NCBI GenBank assembly: GCA_046484135.1
Contig: JAWOBU010000017.1
Span: forward strand, 18,696-82,695
DNA: 64,000 bases
Direction of reading: 5' to 3'
Source of the DNA: a bacterium
Lineage (GTDB): Bacteria; RBG-13-61-14; DATKZS01
Part shown: in pieces, positions 757-18,969 of the stretch
Position numbering within the stretch: the first letter of the stretch is position 1
Layout of the letters: each line of letters starts with the position of its first letter
Notes under the pieces: model-generated
Seen by the model: the letters and a program-made list of their open reading frames with translations, nothing else
Databases searched by the model: none
What the model was told of the DNA's origin: nothing
Made by a program: the position numbers and the translations under genes

Positions 757-1360
757 TTTGCCCAGCGAAGCGGGCAAACCCGGCCTGCTGAAAGATGCGG
801 GCGTTGCCCCGACCAGGGGGAAGACAATCCGAATCGCAAGGGCGTCATGGTGACATGGGTCTGAAGGAAGCGACAGGAAGTGAGCGGCACACAGCGCAAG
901 CGAACCTCATTCGGCGGCGCAGGCGGGTAAGCGTGCTAAATAGCGTGAGGCCGGATTCATGGCGATGAGACAAGGATAAACAGGAGCCGTATACGAGGCC
1001 CGTACGTACGGTTCTGTGAGAGGGCTTGGGCGGGCACGATCAACCAGCCTCACCCTACTCGATCCGCGCCCGCGAGCGCAAAGACAAGCAAAGAAAACGT
1101 AAGAACAAGACTTGCAACTTTCTTCATGGTTCTCCTTATTACCCAGACGATGTTTTATGCGACACTTCTTCTGCCGGCCGAGCGGGTATGATAACATGAC
1201 ACGATCTTCGGAGAGCTTCTTGGAAAAGGAAGAAGATTGAGATGGAGGCGAAGTCTCTGGATAGCGGGGACGATCTCCCGTTTTGTTTTATCGAGACCTG
1301 GAGGTCTCTCCCGCTTTTTATCTTCGCTTTTTGCAAGAAGCTTCGGACATTAGGCAAAAG

Positions 1361-3025: not shown

Positions 3026-3049
3026 AAGGGGGGACCAAGACAAGTAAAG

Positions 3050-3829
3050 ATGTCGTTTGTCTTCTATATCGAGCGGGAGAGCTTCTTTCACCGGCTGCAC
3101 CCGGTAACCAAGATAGTTCTGCTTGTTCTCGGGTTTGCCGCGGCGCTGGTGCTGGAGCGTCCTTTGTATATCCTTTTGCTCTGGCTCATCTTCGCCTGGG
3201 CGGCAAGAGGCACGGGAGTGTTCCAGAGCCTCCGCCGGGTGTGGTGGCTTCTGTTCTTGATTGCGCTGGCGAGCTTCGGCATCTGGAGCGTCGCATACCA
3301 TGGAAAGACCGTTCTCTTCGAGCTCGGGCCTTTCAGCGCAACCAGGGAAGGAATGCTCTTCGGCGCGGGTATGGGGCTTCGTCTCGACCTTATGATCTTC
3401 TGCGGGCTCGTATTCCTGGCCACCACCACGGTCGAGGACTTCACTTACGGGCTCACCAGGATGGGGCTGCCCTTCCCGGTCAGTTTTTCACTGTCCCTCT
3501 CCTTCCGGCTGGTGCCCCTGTTTGGGGACACGATAAAAAAGATCATGGACGCGCAAAAAGCACGCGGGCTTGACCTCGAGTCCGTGAACGTCTTTCGAAG
3601 GATGCAGGGGTATGTTCCGCTTTTGGTGCCGGTCTTTTCCAGCGCCCTGCGCAAGACCGACCAGCTTGCGGTGGCGCTCGAGTCGAAAGGCTTCGGCCTG
3701 CCCGGTCCGCGCGGAAACTACTTGGAGTACCGGGCGGGAGCAAGGGACGCTGGTGCATTGCTCGCCATGATACTTATCATCGCCGCCGAGGTCTGGATCA
3801 GGCTGCAAGGGATGGGAGCGGTAAGCTAG
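3050..3829 (+). CDS. ecfT: ECF transporter transmembrane T component (EcfT/CbiQ family)
   Basis: 259 aa polytopic membrane protein immediately after the duplicated ATPase. RBS aaaaaggag upstream. Confidence 0.8.
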   Translation: MSFVFYIERESFFHRLHPVTKIVLLVLGFAAALVLERPLYILLLWLIFAWAARGTGVFQSLRRVWWLLFLIALASFGIWSVAYHGKTVLFELGPFSATREGMLFGAGMGLRLDLMIFCGLVFLATTTVEDFTYGLTRMGLPFPVSFSLSLSFRLVPLFGDTIKKIMDAQKARGLDLESVNVFRRMQGYVPLLVPVFSSALRKTDQLAVALESKGFGLPGPRGNYLEYRAGARDAGALLAMILIIAAEVWIRLQGMGAVS

Positions 3830-3996
3830 CGCCATGTCAACCGCGACTGAAGCCGTTCGCACGGCTGGACGGCCTTGCTTTAAAATGGAGGTTCTTGTGA
3901 TATGATGAGGGGCGGTTTTACGGACTTGGTTTTACAGGCGGTGAACTGAAGGCCGGCGGAGTAGGGGCGCGGCCACGGCTTGAATGGGAGAGTTCG

Positions 3997-5811
3997 ATGG
4001 AAGAGAAGAGCATCCCCGAAAAATTCTACAAGATGTCACAAGAGCATCCCGGCAGGACCATTTTCCGGAACAAGGAGAACGGGGCCTGGCGCGACATACC
4101 GTGGTCCGAGGTCTCGACCGCGGCCACGGAGATAGCGAACGGGCTGGCCTCGTGGGGGCTGGCTCCGGGAGAGCGGGTGTCCATCCTGTCCGAGAACCGG
4201 CTGGAGTGGATTTACTGTGACTTGGGCATCCTTTGCGCCGCGGGCGTCACCGTAACCATATATCCTTCCAACCTTCCCCACGAGATCGAGCACATTGTCA
4301 ACGACTCGGGCTCGCGGTTTATCGTGGTCTCCGGCGAAGGCCAGCTTGAAAAGCTCGCGGACCGCAAAGAGACCATGCCCGGCCTTGCCGGAGTGATTTC
4401 CATTGACGATGTCAAAGACCCGGCAGATGATGTGCTTTCCCTCGCCAAGCTCCGCGAGAAAGGCCGCGACTACGGCGAGTCAAATCCGGACGAGATAAAA
4501 AACCGCGTCCAAAACATAGACCCCGACGACCTGTGCACCATGGTCTATACCTCGGGAACCACCGGACCGCCCAAGGGAGTGATGACAACCCACAACAACA
4601 TCCTGTCCGTGTACAGGGCCATGGACGAAATCTTGAGTATTGACAAGGACCATGACTCCACGTTGTCCATCCTTCCTTACGCCCACGTTTACGAGCGGAT
4701 CGGCGGGGTCTTTAACGGCATGTTCTCGGGCATCACCATGTCCCTTTGCGAGGGACTCGAGAAGATAGCGGAGAACATCCAGGATGAAAAACCCACCATT
4801 GTTCTGGGAGCGCCCCGCCTGTACGAGAAGATGTACTCCGCCATCCAGCAGAACATCCAGTCGGCCGGTCCCGTAAAGCGGGGCCTTTTCGAGTGGTCGG
4901 TAAAAGCGGGCCGGGAAGCGAGCCCCTACCGGCTCTCCGGCAAGCCCATGCCTCTGGGCCTTCGAGTTCGAAACGCCATTGCCGGCAAGCTGGTCTTCAA
5001 CACCTTCAAACAGCGCTTCGGCGGCAGGATCCGTTTCTTCGTGTCTGCGGCCGCGCCCCTGTCCCGCGAGATCATCGAGTTTTTCCACGCCCTGGACATC
5101 ATGATCATCGAGGGATGGGGCATGACCGAGACCAGCGCGCCCAGCACGGTGAACCGGCCGGACAACATCCGGTTCGGGAGCGTGGGGCAGGAGATTCCGG
5201 GCTGCGAGGTCTCGATAGCTGACGACGGCGAGGTCCTGGTGCGTGGGGACAACGTGTTCAAGGGCTACTACTCGAAGGACGGGCCTATCCGGGAGGACTT
5301 CAACGATGAGGGCTGGTTCCACACCGGCGACATCGGGAGGATGGACGAGGACCGGTTTCTTTACATCACCGACCGCAAGAAGGACATCATCATCACCGCG
5401 GGCGGCAAGAACATCGCTCCGCAAAACATCGAGAACACCTTCAAGAACGACCTTTACATCTCCGAGGCCCTGGTCTTCGGCGACCGGCGCAAGTTCCTGG
5501 TGGCACTGTTCACCCTGGACGAGGAAGCCATCAAGGAATGGGCAAACCAACAGGGCATCGCCTACAAAGACTTTGCCGAGCTTACCCAGAAACCCGAGAC
5601 CTACAGGCATATCGAGTCGCGGGTCCGGGAGATAAATAAGACCCTTGCCAAGCACGAGTCCATCAAGCGCTTCCGCATCATGGACCGACAGTTCGAGCAG
5701 GACGCGGGCGAGGTGACCCCCACCATGAAGCTCAAGCGCAAGGTCCTGAACGAAAAGTTCGCGCCGCTTTTTGAAGAGATGTACCAGGGATTGGAGGACG
5801 GGGTCCTTTAA
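3997..5811 (+). CDS. Long-chain fatty acid-CoA ligase (AMP-forming)
   Basis: 604 aa; AMP-binding motif YTSGTTGPPKGV; TGDIGRMDEDRFLYITDRKKDIII; C-terminal TPTMKLKRK. Confidence 0.85.
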   Translation: MEEKSIPEKFYKMSQEHPGRTIFRNKENGAWRDIPWSEVSTAATEIANGLASWGLAPGERVSILSENRLEWIYCDLGILCAAGVTVTIYPSNLPHEIEHIVNDSGSRFIVVSGEGQLEKLADRKETMPGLAGVISIDDVKDPADDVLSLAKLREKGRDYGESNPDEIKNRVQNIDPDDLCTMVYTSGTTGPPKGVMTTHNNILSVYRAMDEILSIDKDHDSTLSILPYAHVYERIGGVFNGMFSGITMSLCEGLEKIAENIQDEKPTIVLGAPRLYEKMYSAIQQNIQSAGPVKRGLFEWSVKAGREASPYRLSGKPMPLGLRVRNAIAGKLVFNTFKQRFGGRIRFFVSAAAPLSREIIEFFHALDIMIIEGWGMTETSAPSTVNRPDNIRFGSVGQEIPGCEVSIADDGEVLVRGDNVFKGYYSKDGPIREDFNDEGWFHTGDIGRMDEDRFLYITDRKKDIIITAGGKNIAPQNIENTFKNDLYISEALVFGDRRKFLVALFTLDEEAIKEWANQQGIAYKDFAELTQKPETYRHIESRVREINKTLAKHESIKRFRIMDRQFEQDAGEVTPTMKLKRKVLNEKFAPLFEEMYQGLEDGVL

Positions 5812-5850
5812 AAACCTGCGCCACCGGCTTTTCATAGACCGGCTTCCAGC

Positions 5851-5879
5851 TTGATTGTTACCGGTCTGTTTTGTATGAT
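5851..5879 (+). promoter_or_regulatory. sigma70-like promoter TTGATT-17-TATGAT upstream of the symporter gene
   Basis: ttgatt 5851-5856, 17-nt spacer, tatgat 5874-5879. Confidence 0.4.
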
Positions 5880-5919
5880 GAACGCTGGCTAGACAAAGAA
5901 TATCCAAAGGAAGCTGTAA

Positions 5920-7632
5920 ATGGAAGACACGGTACAACTTGCGACTGTTGATTACCTGATCCTGGGGCTTTACTTTGTTTTCGTGCTGGGGATCGGATGG
6001 TGGCTGAAGCGGTACATGAAGACCAGCACCGACTTTTTCCTGTCCGGCCGCTCGATCCCCGCCTGGATCGCGGGCCTGGCTTTTCTTTCGGCCAACCTGG
6101 GCGCCCAGGAAGTCATCGGCATGGCGGCCTCCGGCGCCAAGTACGGGATCATGACCAGCCACTTCTACTGGATCGGGGCCATACCCGCCATGGTGTTCGT
6201 AGGCATCTTCATGATGCCGTTTTATTACGGCTCCAAGGTCCGGTCGGTGCCGGAGTTTTTGAAGTTCCGGTTCGACGAAAAGACGCGGGGCTTTAACGCG
6301 TTCACTTTTGCGGCCATGACCATCCTGTCTTCCGGCATCTCCATGTACGCCCTGGCCATACTTTTCGAGGTCATGCTGGGCTGGAACTTCAGCTTCAGCA
6401 TCTGGATCTCGGCCATTATCGTGCTCGCTTACATCTTCCTGGGCGGGCTGACCTCGGCCATATACAACGAGGTGCTCCAGTTCTTCCTGATCGTGCTCGG
6501 GTTCCTCCCGCTCGTCATCCTGGGTCTTGCAGACATGGGCGGATGGGAAGGACTCACAACCAAGCTCTCCGAGATGGCCACTGACAAGGGATACGCCGCG
6601 GGCGCCTGGACCAATTCCTGGCAACACACCGGGGACGCGGCGCACAACCCCATGGGGGTCGAATGGTTCGGCATCGCCATGGGACTGGGGTTTGTGCTTT
6701 CCTTTGCTTACTGGTGCACCGACTTTCTGGTCATTCAAAGGGCCATGGCCGCGGACTCCATGCTCTCTTCCCGCCGGACGCCGCTTATCGCCGCGGTACC
6801 CAAGATGATCTTCCCGCTTCTGGTCATCGTGCCCGGGATGATAGCCATCGCACTCCAGCACAGCACCGGTTTCGAGCTTCCCTTGAACGAGGAGGGACAG
6901 ACCAACTACAACATGGCCATCCCCATGCTCCTGGTCCATTACTTCCCGCACGGTCTCCTGGGATTGGGGATCACCGCCTTGATGGCCAGCTTTATGTCCG
7001 GCATGGCCGGCAATATCACCGCCTTTAACACGGTATGGACCTACGACATCTATCAGAGCTATGTAAAGCCCGGCAAGTCGGACGAGCACTACCTGTGGAT
7101 GGGAAGGTTCGCCACCGTCTTCGGGGTCGTCTTGAGCGTCCTTGCCGCGTACCTCACCACCAAGTTCGACAACATCATGGACATGCTCCAGTTGATCTTT
7201 GCTTTCGTGAACGCGCCCCTTTTCGCCACCTTCCTGCTCGGAATGTTCTGGAAGAGGGCCACCGGACACGGCGCGTTTATCGGCCTTATTACGGGGACCT
7301 TGTCCGCGGCGCTCCATCACGGGCTTACTCAGCCCATCGGCTCGACCACGCTCTACAAGGGAGGCTGGCTGGGAACAGTGCTTCACGAGTATCCGAGCGA
7401 GATGGCCCAGAACTTCTGGACCGCTATCGTGGCCTGGACCGTGTGCTTCGTGGTTACCATCATCGTGTCTTTTATTACCCGGCAGTTGAAGAGCGACGAA
7501 GAGCTGAAAGGTCTGGTGTACTCGCTCACGCCCAAGATCAAGGAGGAGGGAGTGGCCTGGTATCAGAGGCCGGGTCTGTTCGGAATCATTGTACTTTTGG
7601 CCGCTCTTATCCTGAACATTATCTTCTTCTAG
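5920..7632 (+). CDS. Sodium:solute symporter family (SSS) transporter
   Basis: 570 aa, about 13 TM; SSS-like N-terminus YLILGLYFVFVLGIGWW...FFLSGRS and GLGITALMASFMSGMAG. Confidence 0.85.
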   Translation: MEDTVQLATVDYLILGLYFVFVLGIGWWLKRYMKTSTDFFLSGRSIPAWIAGLAFLSANLGAQEVIGMAASGAKYGIMTSHFYWIGAIPAMVFVGIFMMPFYYGSKVRSVPEFLKFRFDEKTRGFNAFTFAAMTILSSGISMYALAILFEVMLGWNFSFSIWISAIIVLAYIFLGGLTSAIYNEVLQFFLIVLGFLPLVILGLADMGGWEGLTTKLSEMATDKGYAAGAWTNSWQHTGDAAHNPMGVEWFGIAMGLGFVLSFAYWCTDFLVIQRAMAADSMLSSRRTPLIAAVPKMIFPLLVIVPGMIAIALQHSTGFELPLNEEGQTNYNMAIPMLLVHYFPHGLLGLGITALMASFMSGMAGNITAFNTVWTYDIYQSYVKPGKSDEHYLWMGRFATVFGVVLSVLAAYLTTKFDNIMDMLQLIFAFVNAPLFATFLLGMFWKRATGHGAFIGLITGTLSAALHHGLTQPIGSTTLYKGGWLGTVLHEYPSEMAQNFWTAIVAWTVCFVVTIIVSFITRQLKSDEELKGLVYSLTPKIKEEGVAWYQRPGLFGIIVLLAALILNIIFF

Positions 7633-7642
7633 GAGTTGGAAA

Positions 7643-7870
7643 ATGAACGTGGACATAAGATTTCCCATGGGGCTCATGTTCAGCATTACCGGACTGATAC
7701 TGGTGGTGTACTCCTTCTTGACCCCCCAAGAGATATACCGCCAATCTTTGGGACTAAACATAAACCTCTGGTGGGGACTGGCCATACTGGCTTTCGGCGG
7801 CGTCATGCTATACCTCGCGCTCCGCACCATGCTGGCCCGGAAGGCGGACACCCGGGACTCCGCTGAATGA
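7643..7870 (+). CDS. Small 2-TM membrane protein, symporter-associated (DUF4212-like by size and context)
   Basis: 75 aa, two hydrophobic helices, 10 nt after the symporter stop. Confidence 0.5.
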   Translation: MNVDIRFPMGLMFSITGLILVVYSFLTPQEIYRQSLGLNINLWWGLAILAFGGVMLYLALRTMLARKADTRDSAE

Positions 7871-8125
7871 GCCCTGCCCTCCCTGGGCCGTCAAACGCAA
7901 TTATAGCTCTCTGTAAAATAATGTAATACGTGCGAGCGGCGTGAGCCGCCAAAGACGCGCACTCCGCTATGATCATCCTCCTGATTTCCGAGGTCCCACC
8001 GCCTATGGCGCCCAGTATGGAGCCTTGCATCCGTCTTTCCCTGTCTACTCCTTCCCGACGAACTGCTCGGGTGTAAAAATAAAATCCGGGGCCATGGTTA
8101 GCTACTCCTTTTTCTCGTTTTGCAC

Positions 8126-8154
8126 TTGCCGGAATTAAACGAAAAGTCTATAGT
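8126..8154 (+). promoter_or_regulatory. Possible sigma70 promoter TTGCCG-17-TATAGT for the paralog pair
   Basis: ttgccg 8126-8131, tatagt 8149-8154. Confidence 0.3.
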
Positions 8155-8266
8155 GAGATAAACCCGAAACTTTTTCTAACTCACAAGCGTTCATGATTAC
8201 AAGCAGGGGCCGGAAAACATTTAAACAACGTATCCCGTAAATAACTCTACCTGCAAGGAGACAGCC

Positions 8267-10291
8267 ATGAAGAATCTTTTTGGTCTGCTGGCCGCGGTAC
8301 TATCAGTCCTGGTTCTGGCGATGCCCGTCCGGGCCGAGCTGCCGGAGTTCTCGGGTTCCTACCTTTCCATCCCCTGGGAGGACTTCAAAACCCTAATCGA
8401 AAAGCTGGCTGAAAAGGAGGCAGAGCAGGAAGAGGAAGAGCCGGTGCCTGCTCCCTTTGTGATCAACTCCGCCTCATATGAAGGCGAGCTTCTGGAGAAC
8501 GGCTCGGCAAGGTTCGATCTCGAGATGGAGCTGGTGGTGCTGGAGCCGGAGGCTTGGGTCATGGTCCCGGTGATCGCCGAGGGGCCTGCGGTGGAGGAGA
8601 TCAAGCTGGACGGCAAGCCGGTGCTGTCGCTTATGAAAGACGGCAGGCACCAGGTGCTATTGCAGGGCGCCGGTACTTACAGGCTTACCGCCCGTTTCTT
8701 TGTAGAGGCAAAGAACCGCGGGGGCCCGCAGTCGCTCGATTTCCGAATACCCCAAACGCCGGTAACCACGCTTTCCTTTACCATCAACAAGCCGGGCCTG
8801 GACATAACATCCCGAAATGCCGCCATGAGCCGGATAAACAACTATGAGAAGAGCACGAAGCTGGAAGCGGTGCTCGAGCCTTCCGAGCGGATAGCGCTTT
8901 CCTGGACCCGGAAGGTGGAGGCGCAGAAGGCCGAGTTGCGCCAGAACGCCCGGGTTCAATCCCTGGTGACCCTGGGCGGGCACCTTTGCCGGGTGCACTC
9001 GAGGATCAGCTACGAGATACTGCACCGGAGCGTTACCGGTTTCGAGCTGTCCCTGCCCGCGGCCGCCGAGGTCGTGGACGTCTCGGGCAAAGGCATTGCC
9101 GACTGGAAGACCGGTAAAGAGGGAGAAAATAAAATCCTCCGGATCTCCCTCGGTTACGAGGCGACCGGGAATTATGAGCTCTCCGTCAATTACGAGCTCG
9201 AGCTTCCTTCCGCTTCCGCCGGTTTCGATCTGCCCGAACTCGAGACGAGGGGAACAACGCGCGAGACCGGTCACATCGGGGTCATGGCCGGGACCAACAT
9301 CGAGGTCCGGGTGAAAGAGGCGGCCGGGCTTGCTTCCATTGACGTGTCCGAGCTTCCGTCATTTATCCGGGGAAAAGGCTCGCCGGTCATTCACGCTTTC
9401 AAGTACCTGGAACACCCCTGGCGGCTGGCGCTGGAAACCATCAGACACCGCGATATAGAGGTCTTGACCTGTACCGTAGACAAAGCAGCGCTCACGAGCT
9501 TTGTCTCCCGGGAAGGCGAGTTCGTAACCCGGGCCGTCTACACCATCCGGAACAACCGCGAGCAGTTTATAAAGGTAAAACTGCCGGAAGACGCGCGGCT
9601 GTTTTCTTCCTTCCGCGACGGGACGCCGGTACGGCCTTCGCGGGACAAAGACGGGAACGTGCTTATTCCGCTTGCAAAGTCAACCGGAGATTCCGGCAAG
9701 GCCAGGTCCTTCAAGGTCGAGATCGTCTACATGGTGAAGCTTCCCGAGCTTGACGAAGACAAAGGCTCGTTACAGCTCGAAGCTCCTTCCACCGACCTGT
9801 TGACCAACCTGTTGCAATGGAAGCTTTACGTGCCGGAAGACTACAGCTACGAGGTTGAAGAGTCCAGCCTGCAAGAGAAAGAAAGGGAGACCCCCTATAT
9901 CATGGGCCATGAAAGCCTTTTAAAAGAATATGAAGAAGCAGCTTCTAAAAGCGGGAAAAGAAAAGATGAAGGCGGCCTTCTGCTGGGAAAGTCCGCCCAG
10001 GTTCCCAATATCTATCAGTACGAAAAGCAGAAAGCTTATACACCCGTATCCCTCCCGGTCCGGTTTATGCTGCCGGAGTCGGGCTTAGTGCTCGAGTTCT
10101 ACAAGGCGGTGGTGCAGGAAGGCGAAAAGAACTCCGTAACCTTGAGATATGACAAGCCCTCCGAGTTGTGGTCCAAGCTGTGGAAGGCGCTTGTTGCCGG
10201 GGGAGCGATACTGGTGTTGGTTGTGCTCTTCTGGATCATTGTCCAGGCGGAAGCGCGGGGCAGGAAGAGGGACCGGGAGGTGTTGAAATGA
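8267..10291 (+). CDS. Large secreted protein with C-terminal membrane anchor, unknown family (paralog A)
   Basis: 674 aa; signal peptide MKNLFGLLAAVLSVLVLAMPVRA; Glu/Pro-rich linker EEEEEPVPAP; beta-rich body; C-terminal TM helix LVAGGAILVLVVLFWIIV then basic tail RGRKRDR; RBS aaggagac. Confidence 0.7.
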   Translation: MKNLFGLLAAVLSVLVLAMPVRAELPEFSGSYLSIPWEDFKTLIEKLAEKEAEQEEEEPVPAPFVINSASYEGELLENGSARFDLEMELVVLEPEAWVMVPVIAEGPAVEEIKLDGKPVLSLMKDGRHQVLLQGAGTYRLTARFFVEAKNRGGPQSLDFRIPQTPVTTLSFTINKPGLDITSRNAAMSRINNYEKSTKLEAVLEPSERIALSWTRKVEAQKAELRQNARVQSLVTLGGHLCRVHSRISYEILHRSVTGFELSLPAAAEVVDVSGKGIADWKTGKEGENKILRISLGYEATGNYELSVNYELELPSASAGFDLPELETRGTTRETGHIGVMAGTNIEVRVKEAAGLASIDVSELPSFIRGKGSPVIHAFKYLEHPWRLALETIRHRDIEVLTCTVDKAALTSFVSREGEFVTRAVYTIRNNREQFIKVKLPEDARLFSSFRDGTPVRPSRDKDGNVLIPLAKSTGDSGKARSFKVEIVYMVKLPELDEDKGSLQLEAPSTDLLTNLLQWKLYVPEDYSYEVEESSLQEKERETPYIMGHESLLKEYEEAASKSGKRKDEGGLLLGKSAQVPNIYQYEKQKAYTPVSLPVRFMLPESGLVLEFYKAVVQEGEKNSVTLRYDKPSELWSKLWKALVAGGAILVLVVLFWIIVQAEARGRKRDREVLK

Positions 10292-12306
10292 AAAGGACCT
10301 TACTGATCGTGGTGGGGGCGCTGTTGATCGCCTGTCCCGCTTTTGCAAGCGCGAAAGAGCTTCCCGCGCTTTCCGGAGGCAAGGTGATCCTGTTATGGAC
10401 GGACTTCGAGAAAATTCTGCGGGAGTACCTGGAGGAGGAGCCGGAGGATGAGCCGGAGCCGCCGGCGGGCTACTCCTTGCAGGACGCTTCCTTCCGGATA
10501 CGTGTCCGGGACGGCTTTGCCGAAGTCATGGCAGACTACCAGCTTCGAGTTCTTGCTCGCGGATGGGTGTCCGTGCCGATAGGGAAGAGGCAAAGCGGCA
10601 TAAGCGAAGTCAAGGTCAACGGCGAACCCGGCATGTTAAGGGAAGACTCCGGCCGGGTCATGCTGCTTTTGAAAGACCGGGGCCAAAGAAACCTTCGTGT
10701 CCTCCATACCGTGAAGGCCCCCCAGAAGCCGGGCCCCAACTCCTTTTACGTGCCTCTCTTTTCGGTGCCCGGAGCGAAGTTTGTGCTCACGGCTTCCGCC
10801 GAACTGTCCGATATCACCATATCCGACGCCGTCATCACCAGACAGGAGAAGAAGGAGAAACAGTGGAGGATCGAAGCGGTTTCCGGGACCATTTACGACC
10901 TGCGCGTGAATTACAGCGTTCCCGCGCCGGAAGCCGAGGGAGCTGAGAAAGAAGAGGTCCCTCCCAAGGTATACTCGAACACTCAGACCCTTCTTACCAT
11001 CTCGGACGAGGTGACCACCGCGAGGGTGGACCTTTCCTACGACGTAAAGCACAATCCAGTAACCGGCTTCGAGATCGAGCTGCCCGAAGATTACGAAGTT
11101 ATAGAGGTGGATGGAAAGGGAGTCGCCGGCTGGCAGGTTGACGAGGGAGTGCTTCATGTCAACGCGGGCTACGAGGTCACCGGCTCCTATGAGCTTGGTC
11201 TTCGCCTGGAGAGCCAGCGGGGAAAGGCCTCCGGCAAGGTGTCGCTTCCGGAGGTCTCCACACGGGGCGTGGAGCGGGAGACCGGCTACGTGGCGATTGT
11301 GACGAGCTCGAGCCTCGAGGTCAAGATTGACTCCATTAAAAACCTCATGCCCCTGGACGTGTCCGAGCTGCCGTCCGGGTTACGGCGCAAGTCCTCCTAT
11401 CCGCTTCTTTACGGCTTTCGCTACGTGCGCCGTCCCTACTCCGGCAGCATCAACGTAAAGCGGCACCAGGAGCTCGAGGTGTTAAACGCGGCCATTGATA
11501 TCGTCAACCTGGTTACCGTGTTCACCAACGACGGGAAGTCGGTGAGCAGAATCATATACGAACTCCGGAACAACAAGAAGCAGTACATCAAGATAGACCT
11601 GCCCGGCAAGGCAAAGGTGTGGAGCGCATATCTTGACGACAAGCCGGTGAAGCCGACCAGGAACGATACGGGCCAGGTGCTGGTGCCTTTGAAGAAGTCG
11701 GGTGCAGACAAGCGCGCCAGTTTTACGGTCGAGCTTATCTATTACGCGCCGGTGCCGAAGATGGAGGAGACGGGCTCGCACCTGGTGAAGATGCCGCGAG
11801 CGGACATACCCGCTTCAGAGATGCTCCTGTCCCTGTACCTTCCGCCGCACTACGAGTACGACGATTTTGAAGGAGACCTGGAAAGAATCGAGGAGGTGGA
11901 AGACCGGCAGATGAAGGCGGAAGCGGACAAGCCGCGGGAAGAGACAAAGGCCAAGCGACAAATCTACTCCAAGCGGGCCCTGGAGCGGCAGTCCAAGATG
12001 GAAATGGAGATCGCCGAGCAGGTCCAGCAAAAGGCGAAAAAGCCCGCACCCGCGCCTGCGCTCGACCGGGAGCGGCAAGCGGAAAGGCCCCGCGGAATGC
12101 TGCCGGTGAAGTTCAACGTGCCTTTGCGCGGCAGCCCCTTCCGGTTCAGCAAGCTTATCATCATGCGCGAGTCTCCCGAGCTCACTTTCAGTTATGAAAA
12201 AGAAGATGAAGGAAAAGGGCTGGTTTACCTTGTTGCCGGCCTGGCAATCGCGGTGATTGTTGTGACAGGGCTCTTGATTCTAAGGAAAAGGAAGACCGTA
12301 ACATAA
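10288..12306 (+). CDS. Large secreted protein with C-terminal membrane anchor, paralog of 8267..10291 (paralog B). The track start 10168 is an upstream extension
   Basis: ATG overlaps the upstream stop (ATGA). MKRTLLIVVGALLIACPAFA signal peptide; EEEPEDEPEPP linker; colinear similarity to paralog A (e.g. RHQELEVLNAAIDIV.. vs RHRDIEVLTCTVDKA..; YELRNNKKQYIKIDLP vs YTIRNNREQFIKVKLP); C-terminal TM + RKRK. Confidence 0.7.
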   Translation: MKRTLLIVVGALLIACPAFASAKELPALSGGKVILLWTDFEKILREYLEEEPEDEPEPPAGYSLQDASFRIRVRDGFAEVMADYQLRVLARGWVSVPIGKRQSGISEVKVNGEPGMLREDSGRVMLLLKDRGQRNLRVLHTVKAPQKPGPNSFYVPLFSVPGAKFVLTASAELSDITISDAVITRQEKKEKQWRIEAVSGTIYDLRVNYSVPAPEAEGAEKEEVPPKVYSNTQTLLTISDEVTTARVDLSYDVKHNPVTGFEIELPEDYEVIEVDGKGVAGWQVDEGVLHVNAGYEVTGSYELGLRLESQRGKASGKVSLPEVSTRGVERETGYVAIVTSSSLEVKIDSIKNLMPLDVSELPSGLRRKSSYPLLYGFRYVRRPYSGSINVKRHQELEVLNAAIDIVNLVTVFTNDGKSVSRIIYELRNNKKQYIKIDLPGKAKVWSAYLDDKPVKPTRNDTGQVLVPLKKSGADKRASFTVELIYYAPVPKMEETGSHLVKMPRADIPASEMLLSLYLPPHYEYDDFEGDLERIEEVEDRQMKAEADKPREETKAKRQIYSKRALERQSKMEMEIAEQVQQKAKKPAPAPALDRERQAERPRGMLPVKFNVPLRGSPFRFSKLIIMRESPELTFSYEKEDEGKGLVYLVAGLAIAVIVVTGLLILRKRKTVT

Positions 12307-12496
12307 TCGAGCCGGCGGTGGACTTTAGAGGGATGCAGTCGGTGAAGTTCCCCCAAAATTTCTCGTGTTACTCTCGCGTCCTCTTTGAAAAAGCACAGAT
12401 GCCTCGGGGCTGAAGTGAAAATGGAAAAACGCACAAGCTGCCGGGGCGTGCATGAGCCGCGGACTGTGGTGTAGGCCATGACTCCTTTTCGCAAGC

Positions 12497-12713
12497 CGGC
12501 CTGCACAACCCCCGGAAGAGGGGGTGACGTCCATGGCCGGTACGCGAATTTGGCCCGCACAACCCGCGGAAGATGGCCCGCACAACCCCCGGAAGATGGC
12601 CCACACAACTCCCGAAAGATGGCCCGCACAACTCCCGAAAGATGGCCCACACAACTCCCGAAAGATGGCCCACACAACTTGTTGTGTGGGTGATTGAAGA
12701 TCATGGGAGAATC
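12497..12713. repeat. 23-bp tandem direct repeat array (one degenerate copy, then six tight copies of ggcccRcacaacYcccgRaagat) ending in a perfect palindrome
   Basis: Six consecutive 23-bp units at 12552-12689. Upstream degenerate copy at 12497-12519. The final unit converts into the palindrome cccacacaac-tt-gttgtgtggg (12692-12713). Confidence 0.85.
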
Positions 12714-12816
12714 CGCTTCAATTGGTAAAGTACACGAAGAAGACCGGATGGTTTGATGCCGGAGGGATGCGGCAAACATCTTTTACAATGTACCTGCAGA
12801 CCCACTTCGTGAGTCT

Positions 12817-12840
12817 GCCCACACAACAAGTTGTGTGGGC
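12817..12840. repeat. Second copy of the palindrome gcccacacaac-aa-gttgtgtgggc
   Basis: Perfect 11-bp arms, about 105 bp downstream of the first palindrome. Adjacent 5-bp stem hairpin cagac..gtctg. Confidence 0.8.
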
Positions 12841-13004
12841 CATCATGGTGGCTGAGTGGTGTACTCCATTGGACAAAGAAGAGTTGTAAATGGCCGATTG
12901 GAAACTTAAGACAAACGGTCCTGCTTGCCGGTGCCGCTGATGGAGTGACTGGCCGGACATAAAAAATGGGGGAATTTCATGATGCAGTCGCCTTTGACCA
13001 CGTC

Positions 13005-13784
13005 TCAAGCGAGCATGCGGTCCAGGAAATCCAGGATTTCCAGGACCCCTTCGGTCTCTGCCTTGTTTGCTATCAACACGGTGCCGGAGATGAGGTCAGG
13101 AGCTTCCATCAGGGGAACGGCGTTCCTGCCCGCTTTCTCGAGCAGCGGCCGCAGTTCGGTGGCAATGTTGGCGGGCGCCAGCGAGAAATGAGAGTCGGCG
13201 AGCAGGTCCTGGTCGTTCATGGAATCTGCGACCCCGATGATCTCCCGGTCGCCCGCTACCGCGGCCAGGCCGGTGTACTTGTTGTAGCCCACCGGCAGGA
13301 TGTCCACGGCCACCGACGAGTAAGTAACCTGCACCCGGTCATGAAAATTCGAGTCCCCCACAAACCCTTCGATCTTCTCATGCAAAGAACGCGGATCATC
13401 GCTGAACATGGAAATGGTGGTAAGCCGGTGCGCGAAGTAATTGATTTCCGGAAAAGACTGCGCCCGGAGCTGTCCCTCCAGCTCCCAGATGGTCTTGAGC
13501 TCTTCCTTGGTGGTCAGAATCTTTTCGGTCTCGCCGTCCGGGCTCAAGGAGCAGCCCGTCTCGAGAACGTAGCCGTCCACCTGTTCGAGTATCTCGGGCG
13601 GGACCTTCTCTTTTACGAACTTAAGATCGTTGCCGGTGCAGATAAACCGGCTGATCCGGTCTTTTATACGGGCCAGCCCTTCACTGACCATGTTGACCAG
13701 CTCGGGACGGATGACCTCGCCCGGCTCCAGCAGCGTTCCGTGTAAGTCAAGGCCCAGTATGTAAGCGGGTTCTGTTTCTACCAT
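13005..13784 (-). CDS. HAD-superfamily hydrolase (subfamily IIB / Cof-SPP-like)
   Basis: 259 aa; motif I LGLDLHGTLL (DxH instead of DxD); motif IV GDSMNDQDLL. Confidence 0.7.
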   Translation of the reverse strand: MVETEPAYILGLDLHGTLLEPGEVIRPELVNMVSEGLARIKDRISRFICTGNDLKFVKEKVPPEILEQVDGYVLETGCSLSPDGETEKILTTKEELKTIWELEGQLRAQSFPEINYFAHRLTTISMFSDDPRSLHEKIEGFVGDSNFHDRVQVTYSSVAVDILPVGYNKYTGLAAVAGDREIIGVADSMNDQDLLADSHFSLAPANIATELRPLLEKAGRNAVPLMEAPDLISGTVLIANKAETEGVLEILDFLDRMLA

Positions 13785-14524
13785 TCTTCTCTCATCAGTT
13801 GGTTTACTACTTTTCCGACCCGGTCCTGGAGCTGGTTGGGGGACACCGACGACCCCTTGTTGATGTACATGGCGGGCGCGCAGTGAAGCAGGACCTTGCG
13901 GAAGGTTTCGTCACACCTTTTGGACGTAAAAAACAGGATGGGAACATTATCCATATCCTGGGCCTGTTCATGGGCGCGCATGGCCACCGCGGAGCTGATG
14001 CCGTTCAACACCGGCATCTTTACGTCCATTACCACCAGCCCGATCATGGTCTTAATGTCGCGTTCCCGGATGTAACGGCCCAGGAACTCGTAGCCGTTCT
14101 TGCAGGGGATCACCCGCTCGGTAAGGCCCTGCTCAATCAACGTATCGTTCAGGATCGCTGAAATGAGCGAGGAGTCCTCCACCGTGATGACCGTCTGCAA
14201 AGGAGGGCCTTCCGAGACCGGCTCCGGCTCTTCCAAAAGCTCGCCGCCCGCCTTTTGCGGCGTGGACATGGCGCTCGGAAGATCGGGCATCACGAACTCG
14301 GAGCCCGAGCTCTCCTCCGGCCGGAAATCCCCCGGCGACGTGCTGGGCCGGGAAGGAAGCCGGGAAGGATCGGGAAGCGTCTGCGGCTGTTTAACCGTGC
14401 CCAGATAAGAGTGGCAGTGAACGCATTGAAGAAGGTCTTCTCCTTCTATCCCGATGCTCACCCGTTCTACCGGGACCTCCTCGCCGCAGCTTATGCAATA
14501 AACCTTCTCCGGAACCTTGTCCAT
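13778..14524 (-). CDS. Response regulator with an N-terminal zinc-ribbon and C-terminal CheY-like receiver, no output domain
   Basis: CISCGEE...CVHCHS (CxxC x2) at the N-terminus; receiver signature TVEDSSLI...VVMDVKMP...FFTSK. Overlaps the HAD gene by 7 nt. Confidence 0.75.
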   Translation of the reverse strand: MDKVPEKVYCISCGEEVPVERVSIGIEGEDLLQCVHCHSYLGTVKQPQTLPDPSRLPSRPSTSPGDFRPEESSGSEFVMPDLPSAMSTPQKAGGELLEEPEPVSEGPPLQTVITVEDSSLISAILNDTLIEQGLTERVIPCKNGYEFLGRYIRERDIKTMIGLVVMDVKMPVLNGISSAVAMRAHEQAQDMDNVPILFFTSKRCDETFRKVLLHCAPAMYINKGSSVSPNQLQDRVGKVVNQLMREEW

Positions 14525-14624
14525 TAGATGGTTATTATATCAGTTAAAAATCCACTAACAACCCGTAACAAGCAAAATATGACTCGCGGTTCTCGGGCCT
14601 GAGACATGAGGGGGAATTTCAGCC

Positions 14625-14653
14625 TTGACCAAAGTAAAAATCTTTAGTACAAT
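14625..14653 (+). promoter_or_regulatory. sigma70 promoter TTGACC-17-TACAAT for the cytochrome/porin operon, giving a leader of about 280 nt
   Basis: ttgacc 14625-14630, 17-nt spacer, tacaat 14648-14653. Confidence 0.45.
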
Positions 14654-14804
14654 TCTTCCAGTCTCCGAGTCGTTCTTCCCTACAGCAGGAGAAAATGCCA
14701 AGGGAGGCGACCGAAAGGCCGCGAGGGAAACCTCGCGACCCCCCGTGCTTGGAAAGGAGATGTGAGGCCACGGCTTATACAAGCTCGTGGACTGCGCATT
14801 ACAC

Positions 14805-14831
14805 GGCTCTCCGGGGGAGGGCCGTTTTTTT
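14805..14831 (+). promoter_or_regulatory. Terminator-like hairpin + U-run inside the 5' leader (candidate attenuator or riboswitch expression platform)
   Basis: ggctctcc-ggg-ggagggcc stem followed by gttttttt, about 105 nt upstream of the ATG at 14937. Confidence 0.4.
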
Positions 14832-14936
14832 GTTCGTGCCTCCTTTCTTCTCCTGATGTAAGGGCCGGCCCGGAGAAATGTATATATACAAAGTGGGGCG
14901 ATCAATCAATCTTCGGGAGAAAGAAGGGAGGAAGTT

Positions 14937-16220
14937 ATGAAAAGGAATGAATGGAAAAGGAAAACATTTGTCTTACTGACAGTCATGTCTTTTGCAATAG
15001 CAGGAGGCATGGTATTTATCCAGGGCTGCGGTTCTTCTGATGACGGCAGTGGTGACATGGTCTGCTCGTCGCGGGCCTACAAGGGGCACGCTTCGGACCG
15101 GGACATCAACAACTTTGTTCAGGTATATCCCCACACGGTGGGGACCCGGCTGGACGACTGCCAGACCTGCCACACCGGAGGAGAGATCACCGTAACAGAA
15201 ACCGAGGGCAACACCACGGAAGTTGAGACCGAATGGAAGAACTCTTGCGATTATTGTCATTACATCCCCTATCCGCCGGAGCCTCACAGCATAAGCGGCG
15301 AGACGGTTACCGGGTATCCCAAGACCTATTACGATACCTTGAACGGCTACGGCAAGGACTACATGGACAATGGCCGGGACAAGGGCGCCTTGACCACCAT
15401 CGCCGGTCTTGACAGCGACGGGGACAGCTTTTTAAACCACGAGGAGATAGCGGACCTCCGTTACCCGGGGGACTCCGGCAGCAAGCCCGGACAAAAGCTT
15501 TGTCCCATGCGCACGGTCACCGTATCCGAGCTCAAGGGCATGACAGCTCATTCCCAGTTTATGCTGGCCAACACCACCAAGCAGCAGTTCGACTTCTACG
15601 CCAACTGGAAGGGAGTAAAGATCATAGACATCCTGCAAGGAGAAAGCGTAGACCTTAGCGGCGCGAAAAGTATTGATATCCTGGCGCCGGACGGTTTCAC
15701 CAAGTCCTTCAGCGTAAGCGAGATCACGGACCAGTACCCTTACCATAAGTTTTTCAGCGGCTTCGGGGCGGCTGATCTCGGCAGCGACTGCGCCTTTGTC
15801 GAGTATCCGGCTGACACCCGCGGTTATGCTTACGGCGACACCATCACTGATGACCAGTACCATATCCTGGCCTACGAGCGCGAGGGACAACCCCTGGAAG
15901 AATCTTACCTGGACCCCTCTTCCGGCAAGATCGGGGGGGAAGGACCGCTTCGCAATATCATTCCGCCGGGGGCTACGGACGACCAGTACAACCAGCCCGA
16001 TCGCGGCAAGTACGCGGACACCAGCGGCTGTGGTCTTCCAGAGTGGGACTATGACTTCAACAAGGACCACAACGCTCACAACATGGTCAAGGGCGCGGTG
16101 ATCATCCGCATCCAGCCCATGCCGACGGGTTGCGAGGAGTTCGACATCAACAACGGCGGCTGGGCCCTGATTGACGCGGGCGAGCTTCTGATCTACGGCC
16201 ACGGCGTCACCGCGGAGTAA
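14937..16220 (+). CDS. Diheme c-type cytochrome lipoprotein with Ca-binding-like DxDxDG segment and a C-terminal domain of uncertain fold (possibly sulfite-oxidase-family Moco-binding-like)
   Basis: Signal peptide + lipobox-like IQGC; two CxxCH (CQTCH, CDYCH); DSDGDSFLNHEEIADL; strong RBS aagggagg. Confidence 0.75.
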   Translation: MKRNEWKRKTFVLLTVMSFAIAGGMVFIQGCGSSDDGSGDMVCSSRAYKGHASDRDINNFVQVYPHTVGTRLDDCQTCHTGGEITVTETEGNTTEVETEWKNSCDYCHYIPYPPEPHSISGETVTGYPKTYYDTLNGYGKDYMDNGRDKGALTTIAGLDSDGDSFLNHEEIADLRYPGDSGSKPGQKLCPMRTVTVSELKGMTAHSQFMLANTTKQQFDFYANWKGVKIIDILQGESVDLSGAKSIDILAPDGFTKSFSVSEITDQYPYHKFFSGFGAADLGSDCAFVEYPADTRGYAYGDTITDDQYHILAYEREGQPLEESYLDPSSGKIGGEGPLRNIIPPGATDDQYNQPDRGKYADTSGCGLPEWDYDFNKDHNAHNMVKGAVIIRIQPMPTGCEEFDINNGGWALIDAGELLIYGHGVTAE

Positions 16221-16237
16221 ACAGGGCTGGTAATACG

Positions 16238-17389
16238 ATGAAAAGAAGTGTGTGGATAGCGACAGGTGTTTTTGTCCTTCTTTTCTCCCAGGCATTAGAT
16301 GCGGGGATCAAGGCGGGCCTGGAAGCCAACGCCGGCTTCTGGTGGGTCCTCCAGGAAGAGGTCGAAAACGGAGAGCTGCAGGCCGGCACCAGGGACACGG
16401 CGGCACAGGAGGCCTCCGGATTCAACTTCAAGCAGGGCCGCCTGGGTGTACATTTCGGGACAGATAACGGCAAGCTGGAAGGGGTCTTCCGCATCCGGCT
16501 GGAAGAGCGAATGGACATCATTGACTGTTACGGTATCTTCCATGCCGCGCCGTGGATGAGCTTTTACGTGGGCCAGATGAAGATTCCCTCTACCCGTGAG
16601 GTCCTGAAAAGGGACCACATGACTGATTTTGTAACCCGCACTACCTTTGCGCAAAACGTGGGCGACTTCTCTCTTGCCAAGACACCTTACATATCATCGC
16701 TCATGAACGCCTGGAGCCTTAACCGCGACCTCGGGATCGCAGTTAAAGGACAGGTGCCGGACCGGGAAAGCCCGTTTCTCAACTATTACGTAATGGTCGG
16801 AAACGGCGCAGGCGCCGGCCGCTACACCGGAGGCAAGGAGTCCAGCGAGTTTTTTTACACCAACAACTTCGGGGATTATTACTACGGGGGCCGCCTCGAG
16901 ATTTCACCGTGGGACTGGCTTATGGTGGGCGGCCACATGAGCAGGAACCGGCATGAGGACGCGATCATCCAGGACAAGAAGACGGTGGTGGACCTGGAAA
17001 GGGAGGTCTGGACCGCGGACCTCGAGCTCAGGGCTCCATGGGGGACCCGGCTTTATGGTTTTTACGGCGAGGGCTGGATGGAGGACTACTTCTTTTCCCA
17101 GGACTACGAGTTTGACTACCACGGATGGGGATGCTGGCTGGTCCAGGAGCTCATGGACGGAAAACTCGAGCTTGCGGCCCGGTACGACACCTTCACCACC
17201 GAGTTTCAGAAGGACGGGTATCCGGTCTCCCGGAACAACACCACTTACGGGATCAACTGGAGACCAAACCCCTCCTTCAGGCTTCAAGTAAATTACAAGC
17301 ACAAAGAAACCGAGTGCGATTACATGGAAGACCTGGACGATGATCTCCTGGTCATGAACATGCAGTATATTTTCGACACCTGGCAGTAG
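16238..17389 (+). CDS. Outer-membrane beta-barrel (porin-like) protein
   Basis: 383 aa, signal peptide MKRSVWIATGVFVLLFSQA, alternating amphipathic beta-strand pattern, aromatic-rich C-terminus ...YIFDTWQ. 17 nt downstream of the cytochrome gene. Confidence 0.55.
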   Translation: MKRSVWIATGVFVLLFSQALDAGIKAGLEANAGFWWVLQEEVENGELQAGTRDTAAQEASGFNFKQGRLGVHFGTDNGKLEGVFRIRLEERMDIIDCYGIFHAAPWMSFYVGQMKIPSTREVLKRDHMTDFVTRTTFAQNVGDFSLAKTPYISSLMNAWSLNRDLGIAVKGQVPDRESPFLNYYVMVGNGAGAGRYTGGKESSEFFYTNNFGDYYYGGRLEISPWDWLMVGGHMSRNRHEDAIIQDKKTVVDLEREVWTADLELRAPWGTRLYGFYGEGWMEDYFFSQDYEFDYHGWGCWLVQELMDGKLELAARYDTFTTEFQKDGYPVSRNNTTYGINWRPNPSFRLQVNYKHKETECDYMEDLDDDLLVMNMQYIFDTWQ

Positions 17390-17600
17390 TTGTAACACTG
17401 AGAAAAGGGGCCTGTCTTTATGAAGGCGGGCCTCTTTTTTTAAGAGCTTGAGTTAGGTACGCTTAACTTTCCTGGAGCGCTGTGGTACAATAATCGAGAT
17501 TTTGGCAAAAGAAACACTAGAGATGCAAATTTACTAAAAGCAAGTTTTTCGCGGCTTAGGCCGCTCGCCCGGATGAAATCATTTTACAGGAGGAAGTGAG

Positions 17601-17945
17601 ATGAAAAAGGTAGTAATCGTAGGCTGTGGCGCGTACATGGACAGCGGCTACGGCTGTCCCGGCGAATGGAGATGTTTAAAGGCCGCGGCTTTGGGAGAAG
17701 GAAACTTTGAGGAGCCGGTCCAGGTAGTGGGCTTTGTCAAATGCGAATGTCCGGGCAGAAGCGCGGCCCCCAACGTGGGCATGACCAAGAAGCTCTCCGA
17801 GGTCGAGCCGGATGCGGTATATCTGTCATCTTGCCTGGTCAACGCCAAGCCGCCTTGTCCCTATGCGAGCGCGGACGATCTGGCAGGGGCCATTCAAAAA
17901 AAGACCGGCCTTACCGTGAAGCTGGGCACGCACGAGTATCACTGA
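17601..17945 (+). CDS. CGGC-domain protein
   Basis: 114 aa; VVIVGCGAYMDSGYGCPGEWRC...VKCECPGR...SSC: cysteine pattern of the CGGC family. Confidence 0.6.
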   Translation: MKKVVIVGCGAYMDSGYGCPGEWRCLKAAALGEGNFEEPVQVVGFVKCECPGRSAAPNVGMTKKLSEVEPDAVYLSSCLVNAKPPCPYASADDLAGAIQKKTGLTVKLGTHEYH

Positions 17946-17969
17946 TTCGCGGCACGAGCTCCCGGAGCT

Positions 17970-18941: not shown

Positions 18942-18969
18942 CACCCGAAACGTCCTTTGACTATGGCCT

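Follow-up and report, generated by a model that had tools for sequence, protein, structure and literature searches.

The window analyzed here, a 64,000-nucleotide stretch of a bacterial contig (JAWOBU010000017.1, positions 18,696 to 82,695), carries a pair of overlapping genes, open reading frame (ORF) A and ORF B, whose products are paralogs predicted to be exported and held in the membrane by a single C-terminal helix. Their family is large, occurs widely in uncultured diderms and has no annotation at all; a fold can be assigned to it, a function cannot. The structural models put both proteins firmly in the M1-N/Ost1/VIT class of beta-sandwiches (M1-N being the N-terminal beta domain of M1 aminopeptidases), with an overall architecture most like that of Ost1/ribophorin I (RPN1). 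Since it is covered by no named family, hidden Markov model (HMM) or paper, the pair amounts to more than a gap in annotation. Nor is it categorically new in fold or general design, and it is less exotic than a preliminary description of this DNA had assumed: its products would be of a known kind, type I membrane scaffolds made of Ost1- or M1-N-type beta-sandwiches. Short of calling it probable, we favor the reading that the two proteins join into a hetero-oligomer at the outer face of the cytoplasmic membrane and serve there as a scaffold or binding module.

Two overlapping genes encode colinear paralogs

ORF A and ORF B match exactly the NCBI entries 'MAG: hypothetical protein R6V10_01330 [bacterium]' and 'MAG: hypothetical protein R6V10_01335 [bacterium]', respectively (MAG, metagenome-assembled genome). 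We took as the start of ORF B an ATG internal to a 712-amino-acid ORF that opens with GTG. The genes and their candidate signals are:

8126-8154, + strand: weak sigma-70-like promoter candidate, TTGCCG-17-TATAGT (consensus scan, 9/12 matches)
8256-8261, + strand: Shine-Dalgarno-like AAGGAG, 5 nt 5' of the ORF A start codon, read off the sequence
8267-10291, + strand: ORF A, 674 amino acids (signal peptide, acidic helix, three beta domains, linker, beta-hairpin, transmembrane (TM) helix, basic tail)
10274-10291, + strand: coupling junction, with a Shine-Dalgarno-like GGGAGGTG in the 3' end of ORF A and the overlapping stop/start ATGA at 10288-10291
10288-12306, + strand: ORF B, 672 amino acids, colinear paralog of ORF A

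Over their full length the two proteins align colinearly with 31% identity in 678 columns (BLASTP, E 6e-92), a likeness that, judged by this comparison, is far above chance. Together with the ATGA overlap, this bears out the claim of the preliminary description that the genes form a colinear paralog pair with overlapping start and stop. The GGGAGGTG element sits 7 nt 5' of the ORF B ATG. The promoter candidate falls in the 396-nt intergenic region 5' of ORF A; a consensus match of this kind is no evidence of function. No Rfam element or riboswitch was found in 7600-13100, neither 5' nor 3' of the gene pair.

Antisense ORFs cross ORF A (8657-9274) and ORF B (10636-11157). They resemble a 1123-amino-acid GTG ORF on the minus strand (4480-7851), antisense to the acyl-CoA synthetase and symporter genes farther upstream, which is almost certainly a spurious long ORF of the type seen in GC-rich DNA.

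Layout of the two proteins

ORF A is divided as follows (D1 to D3, beta domains; pLDDT, predicted local distance difference test):

8267-8335, + strand: Sec-type signal peptide, amino acids 1-23 (...VRA); hydrophobic 19-mer at 3-21, Kyte-Doolittle (KD) hydropathy 2.28
8375-8452, + strand: W-x-D-F-x-K-I-L helix and Glu/Pro-rich acidic linker, amino acids 37-62
8456-8911, + strand: D1, amino acids 64-215 (AlphaFold, pLDDT 81-94)
8942-9460, + strand: D2, amino acids 226-398 (AlphaFold)
9461-9871, + strand: D3, amino acids 399-535 (AlphaFold and conservation)
9872-10057, + strand: charged linker, amino acids 536-597, predicted disordered (pLDDT 29-40)
10058-10162, + strand: membrane-proximal beta-hairpin, amino acids 598-632, LPVxFxVPxxGxxxxFxK...
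10175-10288, + strand: TM helix (about amino acids 637-660) and basic tail (661-674)

The corresponding parts of ORF B are:

Signal peptide, amino acids 1-22; D1, 62-211; D2, 227-396; D3, 397-530
Charged linker, 531-605, with a helix at 562-584; hairpin, 606-640; TM helix, 643-665; tail, RKRKTVT

Each protein contains exactly two hydrophobic 19-mers, one N-terminal and one C-terminal (641-659 in ORF A, 646-664 in ORF B). This pattern and the basic tails agree with the earlier claim that both proteins are secreted and C-terminally anchored; signal-peptide cleavage and topology were judged by hydropathy only. The predicted cut follows MKNLFGLLAAVLSVLVLAMPVRA and precedes E in ORF A, and follows MKRTLLIVVGALLIACPAFASA (...ASA, amino acids 1-22) and precedes K in ORF B. 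The position of the signal peptide is common to all homologues. In ORF A, the C-terminal segment at 641-659 has a KD value of 2.96 and leads into the tail AEARGRKRDREVLK, which ends in ...EARGRKRDREVLK.

Behind the signal peptide, W37 and F40 of ORF A are at least 90% conserved and lie on a helix that AlphaFold places at 37-54. Asp and Glu make up 40-43% of the acidic linker across both proteins (40% in ORF A), and the Glu/Pro-rich linker and beta-rich body of the preliminary description are thus both present, the latter in both AlphaFold models. D3 holds most of the conserved positions: G417, N429, L439-P440, P468-L469, Y488, P507 and P523. The linker that follows differs in length among homologues, and in P0024 and P0025 a CarboxypepD_reg domain is inserted there. 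It had been described as charged and coiled-coil-like. Charged it is; in the models the segment is of low confidence, mostly disordered in ORF A (541-597) and formed into one predicted helix in ORF B (562-584, pLDDT about 60-69). The membrane-proximal hairpin is strongly conserved (P603, G606 and F611 at 89-96% in 192 modules), and its strands in ORF A, 607-613 and 623-629, are modeled at pLDDT 76-90.

Neither protein contains an LPXTG, PEP-CTERM or conserved Gly-Gly motif, and NCBIfam returned no sorting-signal match. ORF A has an 'AGGA' at the start of its TM helix, which is not kept in orthologues. We rejected the idea of a sorting-signal protein (LPXTG, PEP-CTERM or GlyGly-CTERM) on this lack of a motif and on the fused homologues, in which the equivalent helix is an internal TM segment followed by more TM segments and a second module.

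In the signal peptide of ORF B, L-I-A-C16 (10324-10335, amino acids 13-16) fits the lipobox [LVI][ASTVI][GAS]C; ORF A is without a lipobox. Because no orthologue keeps this cysteine, we discarded a bacterial lipoprotein as a candidate, and by this comparison lipidation is unlikely to be a feature of the family.

Predicted structure and fold class

The AlphaFold models of the two proteins, each based on an alignment of 21 sequences, are alike: three beta domains, a low-confidence linker, and two conserved strands (607-629 in ORF A) before the TM helix. Mean pLDDT is 76 for ORF A and 78 for ORF B, and the domain cores are confident at pLDDT 80-94. The predicted template modeling scores (pTM) are 0.38 and 0.40, respectively.

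When the models were compared with the Protein Data Bank (PDB) by Foldseek, Ost1/RPN1 took the first seven places for ORF A (best E 2e-10) and the first eight for ORF B (best E 9e-9). These alignments are colinear, span 410-540 columns and take in almost all of the Ost1 chain. Lower in the list come integrin alpha legs, PIG-T, M1 aminopeptidase N-terminal domains and ITIH1. Within the family, hhalign detects weak similarity between D2 and D3 (probability 73%) and between D1 and D3 (42%), which suggests that the three domains are ancient repeats.

The preliminary description had called the family unrecognisable. This judgment stands for the sequence libraries, Pfam, NCBIfam, PADLOC and the PDB; at the level of the fold it does not.

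A large family without annotation

Among 21 members of the family (ORF A, ORF B and 19 others aligned with them), none matched Pfam at E ≤ 1. In 14 more distant members, five searched at E ≤ 0.01 and nine at E ≤ 0.1, we obtained sub-threshold matches to unrelated families, and the CarboxypepD_reg insert in the linker of two distant members that lack a TM segment is the sole real exception. NCBIfam gave two non-significant matches to unrelated families for ORF A and ORF B at E ≤ 1 and, for five distant members at E ≤ 0.01, a sub-threshold GspG-like match in two of the five. A PADLOC scan of ORF A and ORF B returned nothing, and neither the two proteins nor the family profile found a PDB sequence. 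As far as these comparisons reach, no curated family among Pfam, NCBIfam and PADLOC covers the pair. In line with the preliminary description, motifs and profiles also separate it from PEP-CTERM, LPXTG and DUF4139 proteins, and likewise from BatD.

Word-indexed homologue searches gave the impression of a very rare family: among 5.8 billion proteins, one query found 7 relatives and the other 18, and another such search gave 10 matches. This impression was an artefact of sensitivity. An exhaustive HMMER search of 1.84 billion representatives (50%-identity clusters), run with a profile of 21 sequences (A1), recovered 10,185 at E ≤ 1e-3 and 3,446 at E ≤ 1e-30, so that the check on phyletic distribution proposed earlier ends in at least 3,446 cluster representatives and rarity is refuted. 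Every source name seen was 'hypothetical protein', and every source a MAG. The named phyla are Acidobacteriota, Candidatus Schekmanbacteria, 'Deltaproteobacteria' (of Desulfobacterota type), Verrucomicrobiota/Limisphaerales and Elusimicrobiota; the family probably also reaches Planctomycetota, as judged from one weak partial match in Planctomycetaceae. A scan of GTDB genomes with an alignment of the B clade yielded 3 close MAG loci only. In tblastn searches, plasmids and phages contained no copies, and we dropped a mobile-element origin on that result.

In 192 modules, the residues conserved to 80% or more are P, G, L, Y, W and F; D359 and N429 are the only others. This pattern fits a structural or binding protein rather than an enzyme. 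Thousands of sequence clusters lack a Pfam or NCBIfam model, a name and a studied member, and defining the family would clear a sizeable block of 'hypothetical proteins', including giants of 2,000-2,800 amino acids.

Pairing, fusion and amplification of modules

In the clade to which the window belongs, every locus recovered has an A-type gene whose stop overlaps the start of a B-type gene directly behind it:

L001: A + B, 754 + 777 amino acids
L002: A + B, 667 + 678 amino acids
L004-6: A + B, 675 + 737 amino acids
L007: A + B, 695 + 701 amino acids
L008: A + B, proteins P0002 + P0009

At the A-B junction the genes overlap by 1-8 nt, mostly by 4 nt (8 loci: L001, L002, L004-6, L007, L011 and L012). 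Identities within the clade are 42-66% between A proteins, 49-70% between B proteins and 27-29% between A and B, and by this measure A and B are distinct orthologous lineages.

More distant members join two complete modules in one chain of about 1,400-1,750 amino acids. The giants, mostly from Verrucomicrobiota, have the middle domain in additional copies in both halves; the duplicated unit (profile positions about 222-400) corresponds to D2. Two or more complete modules per chain occur in 44 of the 169 proteins retrieved, and three loci combine genes in other ways:

L011: three-module set, 1154 + 2516 amino acids
L015: three-module set, 1476 + 788 amino acids
L012: overlapping gene pair, 1095 + 2033 amino acids; weak, partial profile match in the first gene, none in the second

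In 97 of 100 modules, partners left aside, the nearest relative of a first module is again a first module, and that of a second module a second. Once identity falls below about 30%, clade HMM scores and identity matrices alike no longer show how A/B correspond to modules 1/2. Single-gene members also occur (P0018/P0019, and P0185, which lies in a 5.08-Mb MAG). Pairing is therefore very common, as adjacent genes, fusions or 2+1 and 1+2 sets, and not universal; the question raised earlier, whether the pair is always duplicated, is answered by a frequent habit with exceptions. That modules recur in pairs, in fusions and in amplified form points to an envelope assembly in which several modules are obligatory.

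Fused chains have about three TM-like segments after each module and, behind these, the signal-like segment of the next module, which would serve as a signal-anchor. By crude hydropathy, 17 simple fusions have 2 to 6 TM-like segments between their modules; four occur, for example, in P0029 and P0034. Four segments would put both fused modules on the same side of the membrane, which we take as indicative only.

About three TM-like segments after each module are seen in P0026-P0035 and similar fusions, in P0018-P0022 and in P0007, and most relatives outside the window's clade have this number. The single-TM anchor of ORF A and ORF B may hence be a reduced form of an ancestral assembly with a small multi-helix membrane domain. 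Between the two halves of the Verrucomicrobiota giants P0028 (amino acids 892-954) and P0031 (885-951) we noticed a weak resemblance to the hydrophobic N-terminal helix of GspG, the type II secretion pseudopilin; the matches to NCBIfam TIGR01710 (E 1.7e-5 and 1.1e-3, respectively) fall far short of the cut-off.

Relation to Ost1/ribophorin I and other known systems

Like Ost1/RPN1, ORF A and ORF B are, as read here, non-enzymatic type I proteins with a signal peptide, tandem extracytoplasmic beta-sandwiches of one fold and a single C-terminal TM helix. The type I topology of the Ribophorin I/Ost1 family (PF04597) is matched as far as hydropathy and AlphaFold allow it to be deduced, and the fold of its luminal domains is matched by the models. 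The resemblance does not extend to sequence. Pfam Ribophorin_I was not hit at E ≤ 1 in the 21 members nor at E ≤ 0.01-0.1 in the 14 further ones, and the family profile did not find RPN1 or Ost1 among PDB sequences at E ≤ 10. Compared by hhalign with human RPN1 and yeast Ost1, the family alignment and each single domain gave probabilities below 2%, against a template profile of only 2 sequences. The sole patch is a 13-column strand, ILPEGAKNIEI in RPN1, FLPEGAEIFDI in Ost1 and ..LPxxAxVWS in the family (with the invariant L439-P440), and it is not significant.

The two systems also differ in build. Ost1 has two luminal domains; ORF A and ORF B have three plus a hairpin, and the giants have 4-5. 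Their tails are short and basic (7-14 residues), whereas Ribophorin I/Ost1 of metazoa and Asgard archaea has a ribosome-binding cytosolic helical bundle. Unlike Ost1, ORF A and ORF B are bacterial and come as a paralogous pair or fusion. No STT3/PglB gene was found in the parts of the window covered (1283-18944 and ten large ORFs of 24209-47480), nor within about 10 kb in any related locus. Because domain number, tail length, paralog pairing and the lack of a linked STT3/PglB gene set them apart, membership of ORF A and ORF B in Ribophorin_I is not established, and the resemblance that the models support is one of fold and architecture. Reports of OST1 are limited to eukaryotes and to archaea of the TACK and Asgard groups (PMC11417166), and no detectable bacterial homologues have been reported for the non-catalytic subunits of the oligosaccharyltransferase (OST) complex (PMC4973528). 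Ost1 itself has two similar luminal beta domains and one TM helix and may hold the glycosylated peptide; its own role is unsettled (PMC7226087). We found no description of bacterial Ost1-like proteins in the literature.

Other proteins of the fold class are more distant in design. In M1 aminopeptidases, LTA4H and tricorn-interacting factor F3 (also in TAF2 and M61), the beta domain makes up the N-terminal lobe of a zinc peptidase that is soluble; the pair repeats the domain, anchors it in the membrane and has no catalytic domain, and identity is about 5-11%. An M1 aminopeptidase (Peptidase_M1_N plus Peptidase_M1) was rejected because the thermolysin-like zinc catalytic domain is missing. The VIT domain of ITIH1 and VIT-vWA proteins differs in that no vWA domain follows in ORF A and ORF B and no Pfam VIT match was obtained, and with neither the profile nor the vWA domain present we set this candidate aside too. 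PIG-T of the GPI transamidase and the integrin alpha leg (thigh/calf) are stacked beta-sandwiches with one C-terminal TM helix that serve as scaffolds in hetero-oligomeric membrane complexes; their TM-scores are much lower (0.12-0.2), and they are eukaryotic with other partners. Legionella lpg2210 (PDB 4g2a, 'putative nutrient binding protein') and BDI_1141 (3kd4) are soluble, single-domain or transglutaminase-linked, unpaired and without a TM anchor. DUF4139/DUF4140 (MuiA-like) and BatD were rejected, as neither Pfam nor NCBIfam matched them in ORF A or ORF B at E ≤ 1.

Proposed role and alternative explanations

In the mechanism that we favor, one translationally coupled transcript would yield ORF A and ORF B in roughly equal amounts. 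Both would be exported by Sec, and the single C-terminal helix of each would anchor it in the cytoplasmic membrane with the basic tail inside. Three beta-sandwich domains per protein would then be displayed in the periplasm of the diderm host: D3, completed by the C-terminal hairpin, at the membrane surface, and D1 distal, reaching into the periplasm. Side by side, A and B would make up a pseudo-symmetric hetero-oligomer that acts as an autonomous, non-enzymatic scaffold or binding module at the outer face of the inner membrane, and by analogy with Ost1/ribophorin I, M1-N and VIT its ligand could be an extended polypeptide or glycan chain. Our confidence is fairly high for architecture and location, moderate for the heteromer and low for the nature of the ligand. 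The envelope location proposed in the preliminary description remains the natural reading.

Several observations together support this mechanism: the genes are coupled, fusions of two modules recur, the topology predicted for the fusions would put both modules on one side of the membrane, A and B belong to separate lineages, no neighbor is conserved, and diderm markers are present (a porin-like gene in the window; TolB, OmpA and SurA in L007). The module is called autonomous because no flanking gene is common to the eleven related locus types that we distinguished (two of which occur on more than one contig), and because no copies were found on plasmids or phages.

Several points weigh against this proposal. 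The geometry between domains is uncertain (pTM 0.38-0.40), and for contact between A and B coupling and fusion are the whole of the evidence. Cleavage of the signal peptide and topology depend on hydropathy, and the ligand and physiological role are suggested purely by analogy of fold. A and B cannot be mapped onto modules 1 and 2 of the distant fusions, and because this correspondence is lost, duplication may have occurred more than once. The single-gene members P0018/P0019 and P0185 indicate that a partner paralog is not obligatory.

A bolder reading would make the family the long-missing bacterial relative of Ost1/ribophorin I: true, very remote homologues that, as an A/B pseudo-dimer, act as accessory subunits beside the Sec translocon or a membrane enzyme, for example a PglB/STT3-type or other polyprenol-dependent glycosyltransferase, and hold nascent or modified chains at the membrane surface. 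The gross architecture, with its signal peptide, repeated domains of the same fold and one C-terminal TM helix, is the same (PMC7226087), the 'LPEGA'-like strand motif of the RPN1/Ost1 C-terminal domain aligns, without significance, with L439-P440 of D3, and one giant lies directly 3' of nucleotide-sugar modification genes. We nevertheless consider this reading unlikely: sequence comparisons were negative in hhalign (below 2%), Pfam Ribophorin_I and the PDB profile search, three or more domains stand against two, the cytosolic helical bundle is absent, neither STT3/PglB nor any other conserved neighbor appears in the loci examined, and the literature confines OST1 to eukaryotes and to archaea of the TACK and Asgard groups (PMC11417166, PMC4973528). 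If it were true, the Ost1 architecture would be older than the archaeal and eukaryotic OST complex and would have an independent role in the envelope of bacteria. What the Ost1 fold does at a membrane surface might become clearer from a tractable bacterial analogue, and should the resemblance prove merely convergent or one of superfold, the family would still be a new envelope component that merits a DUF (domain of unknown function) entry.

The same stack of exposed beta-sandwiches could also belong to a cell-surface coat or adhesin, S-layer-like or integrin-like, that serves attachment or cell-cell contact. Surface proteins of archaea and monoderms usually combine a signal peptide, a beta-sandwich stack and a C-terminal anchor, Foldseek also returned integrin alpha legs, and amplification of D2 in the giants is typical of adhesins. 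The hosts, however, carry outer-membrane markers (the porin-like gene; TolB, OmpA and SurA in L007), so that a protein anchored in the inner membrane would have its body confined to the periplasm; neither a sorting motif nor a nearby secretion-system gene was found, and the anchor helices of the fusions are internal TM segments, not cleavable sorting signals. This makes a coat or adhesin quite unlikely. An ordinary annotation gap, in which a diverged member of a characterised family (DUF4139/MuiA-like, BatD, VIT-vWA) was missed by the profile libraries, draws on the fact that the M1-N/Ost1/VIT fold class is common to several bacterial DUF families. We rate it as very unlikely given that Pfam, NCBIfam and PADLOC gave no meaningful match and all source names seen are 'hypothetical protein'. 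Least credible to us are protease accessory factors or traps, whose M1-N-like domains would bind peptides and either deliver them to a protease of the periplasm or membrane or protect them from it: neither ORF A nor ORF B has a peptidase domain or a Pfam peptidase match, no protease gene is conserved in the neighborhood, and the conserved polar residues are too few for an active site. The hetero-oligomeric scaffold or binding module thus remains the reading that we prefer.

Genomic neighborhood

The preliminary description had placed the pair in an accessory context. ORF A and ORF B have a GC content of 0.56-0.58, like the rest of the window, and are flanked by ordinary chromosomal genes, so that this claim falls. 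An ECF/ABC transporter, an acyl-CoA synthetase and an SSS symporter lie 5' of the pair, a response regulator, a cytochrome-like protein and a porin-like protein lie 3', and ThiC, HisD, AroA and a methyl-accepting chemotaxis protein (MCP) are encoded farther off. Whether the pair always sits beside an SSS symporter had been raised as a check; the flanking genes differ in every locus, which makes the symporter link incidental.

In 5 of the 11 locus types, genes for Ser/Thr protein kinases are found no more than 10 kb from family genes (L001, 16382-17371; L002, 3428-4543; L003, 1-907; L011, 3805-4908; L015, 18130-20493), and some of these kinases have FHA, TPR or AAA_16 partners. Their proximity may reflect kinase-rich phyla and is not convincing as a conserved neighborhood. 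In L016 (1889-9751), the 2685-amino-acid Limisphaerales giant P0041 lies directly 3', on the same strand, of a nucleotide-sugar modification cluster (formyltransferase, GFO_IDH_MocA oxidoreductases, Epimerase_2, DegT aminotransferase); this is a single case.

Upstream of the pair, a 75-amino-acid ORF with two hydrophobic segments (7643-7870, + strand) begins 11 nt after the SSS symporter gene with GGAG just upstream, and may encode a small membrane subunit of the symporter. This ORF, the symporter and the acyl-CoA synthetase (3997-5811) have the look of an operon for carboxylate uptake that is unconnected with ORF A and ORF B.

The intergenic region 3' of ORF B (12551-12844) contains a 23-bp tandem repeat of unit TGGCCCACACAACTCCCGAAAGA in 5.6 copies with 94% matches. 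At its end stands a perfect inverted repeat with arms of 27 nt (12664-12690 and 12818-12844) and 127 nt between them, and each arm holds the palindrome CCCACACAAC-NN-GTTGTGTGGG. All 8 copies of the 12-mer GGCCCACACAAC in the window fall in this region (0.37 expected). The region is like a miniature inverted-repeat transposable element (MITE) or an operator, and no Rfam family matched it.

Farther downstream, a response-regulator receiver protein (13778-14524, - strand) carries four Cys in a zinc-ribbon-like N-terminal segment, CISCGEEV...CVHCHS, and has a Pro/Ser-rich linker. The next gene downstream of it on the minus strand (13005-13784) encodes 259 amino acids with no Pfam match. At 14937-17389, a secreted 427-amino-acid protein with two CxxCH haem motifs (CQTCH, CDYCH) and a weak Cytochrome_C7 match is directly followed by a 383-amino-acid protein with a weak Porin_O_P match, and the two may be a cytochrome-porin pair. 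A 616-amino-acid protein at 31146-32996 (- strand) matches the uncharacterised family DUF6178 over its full length (E 1.9e-126).

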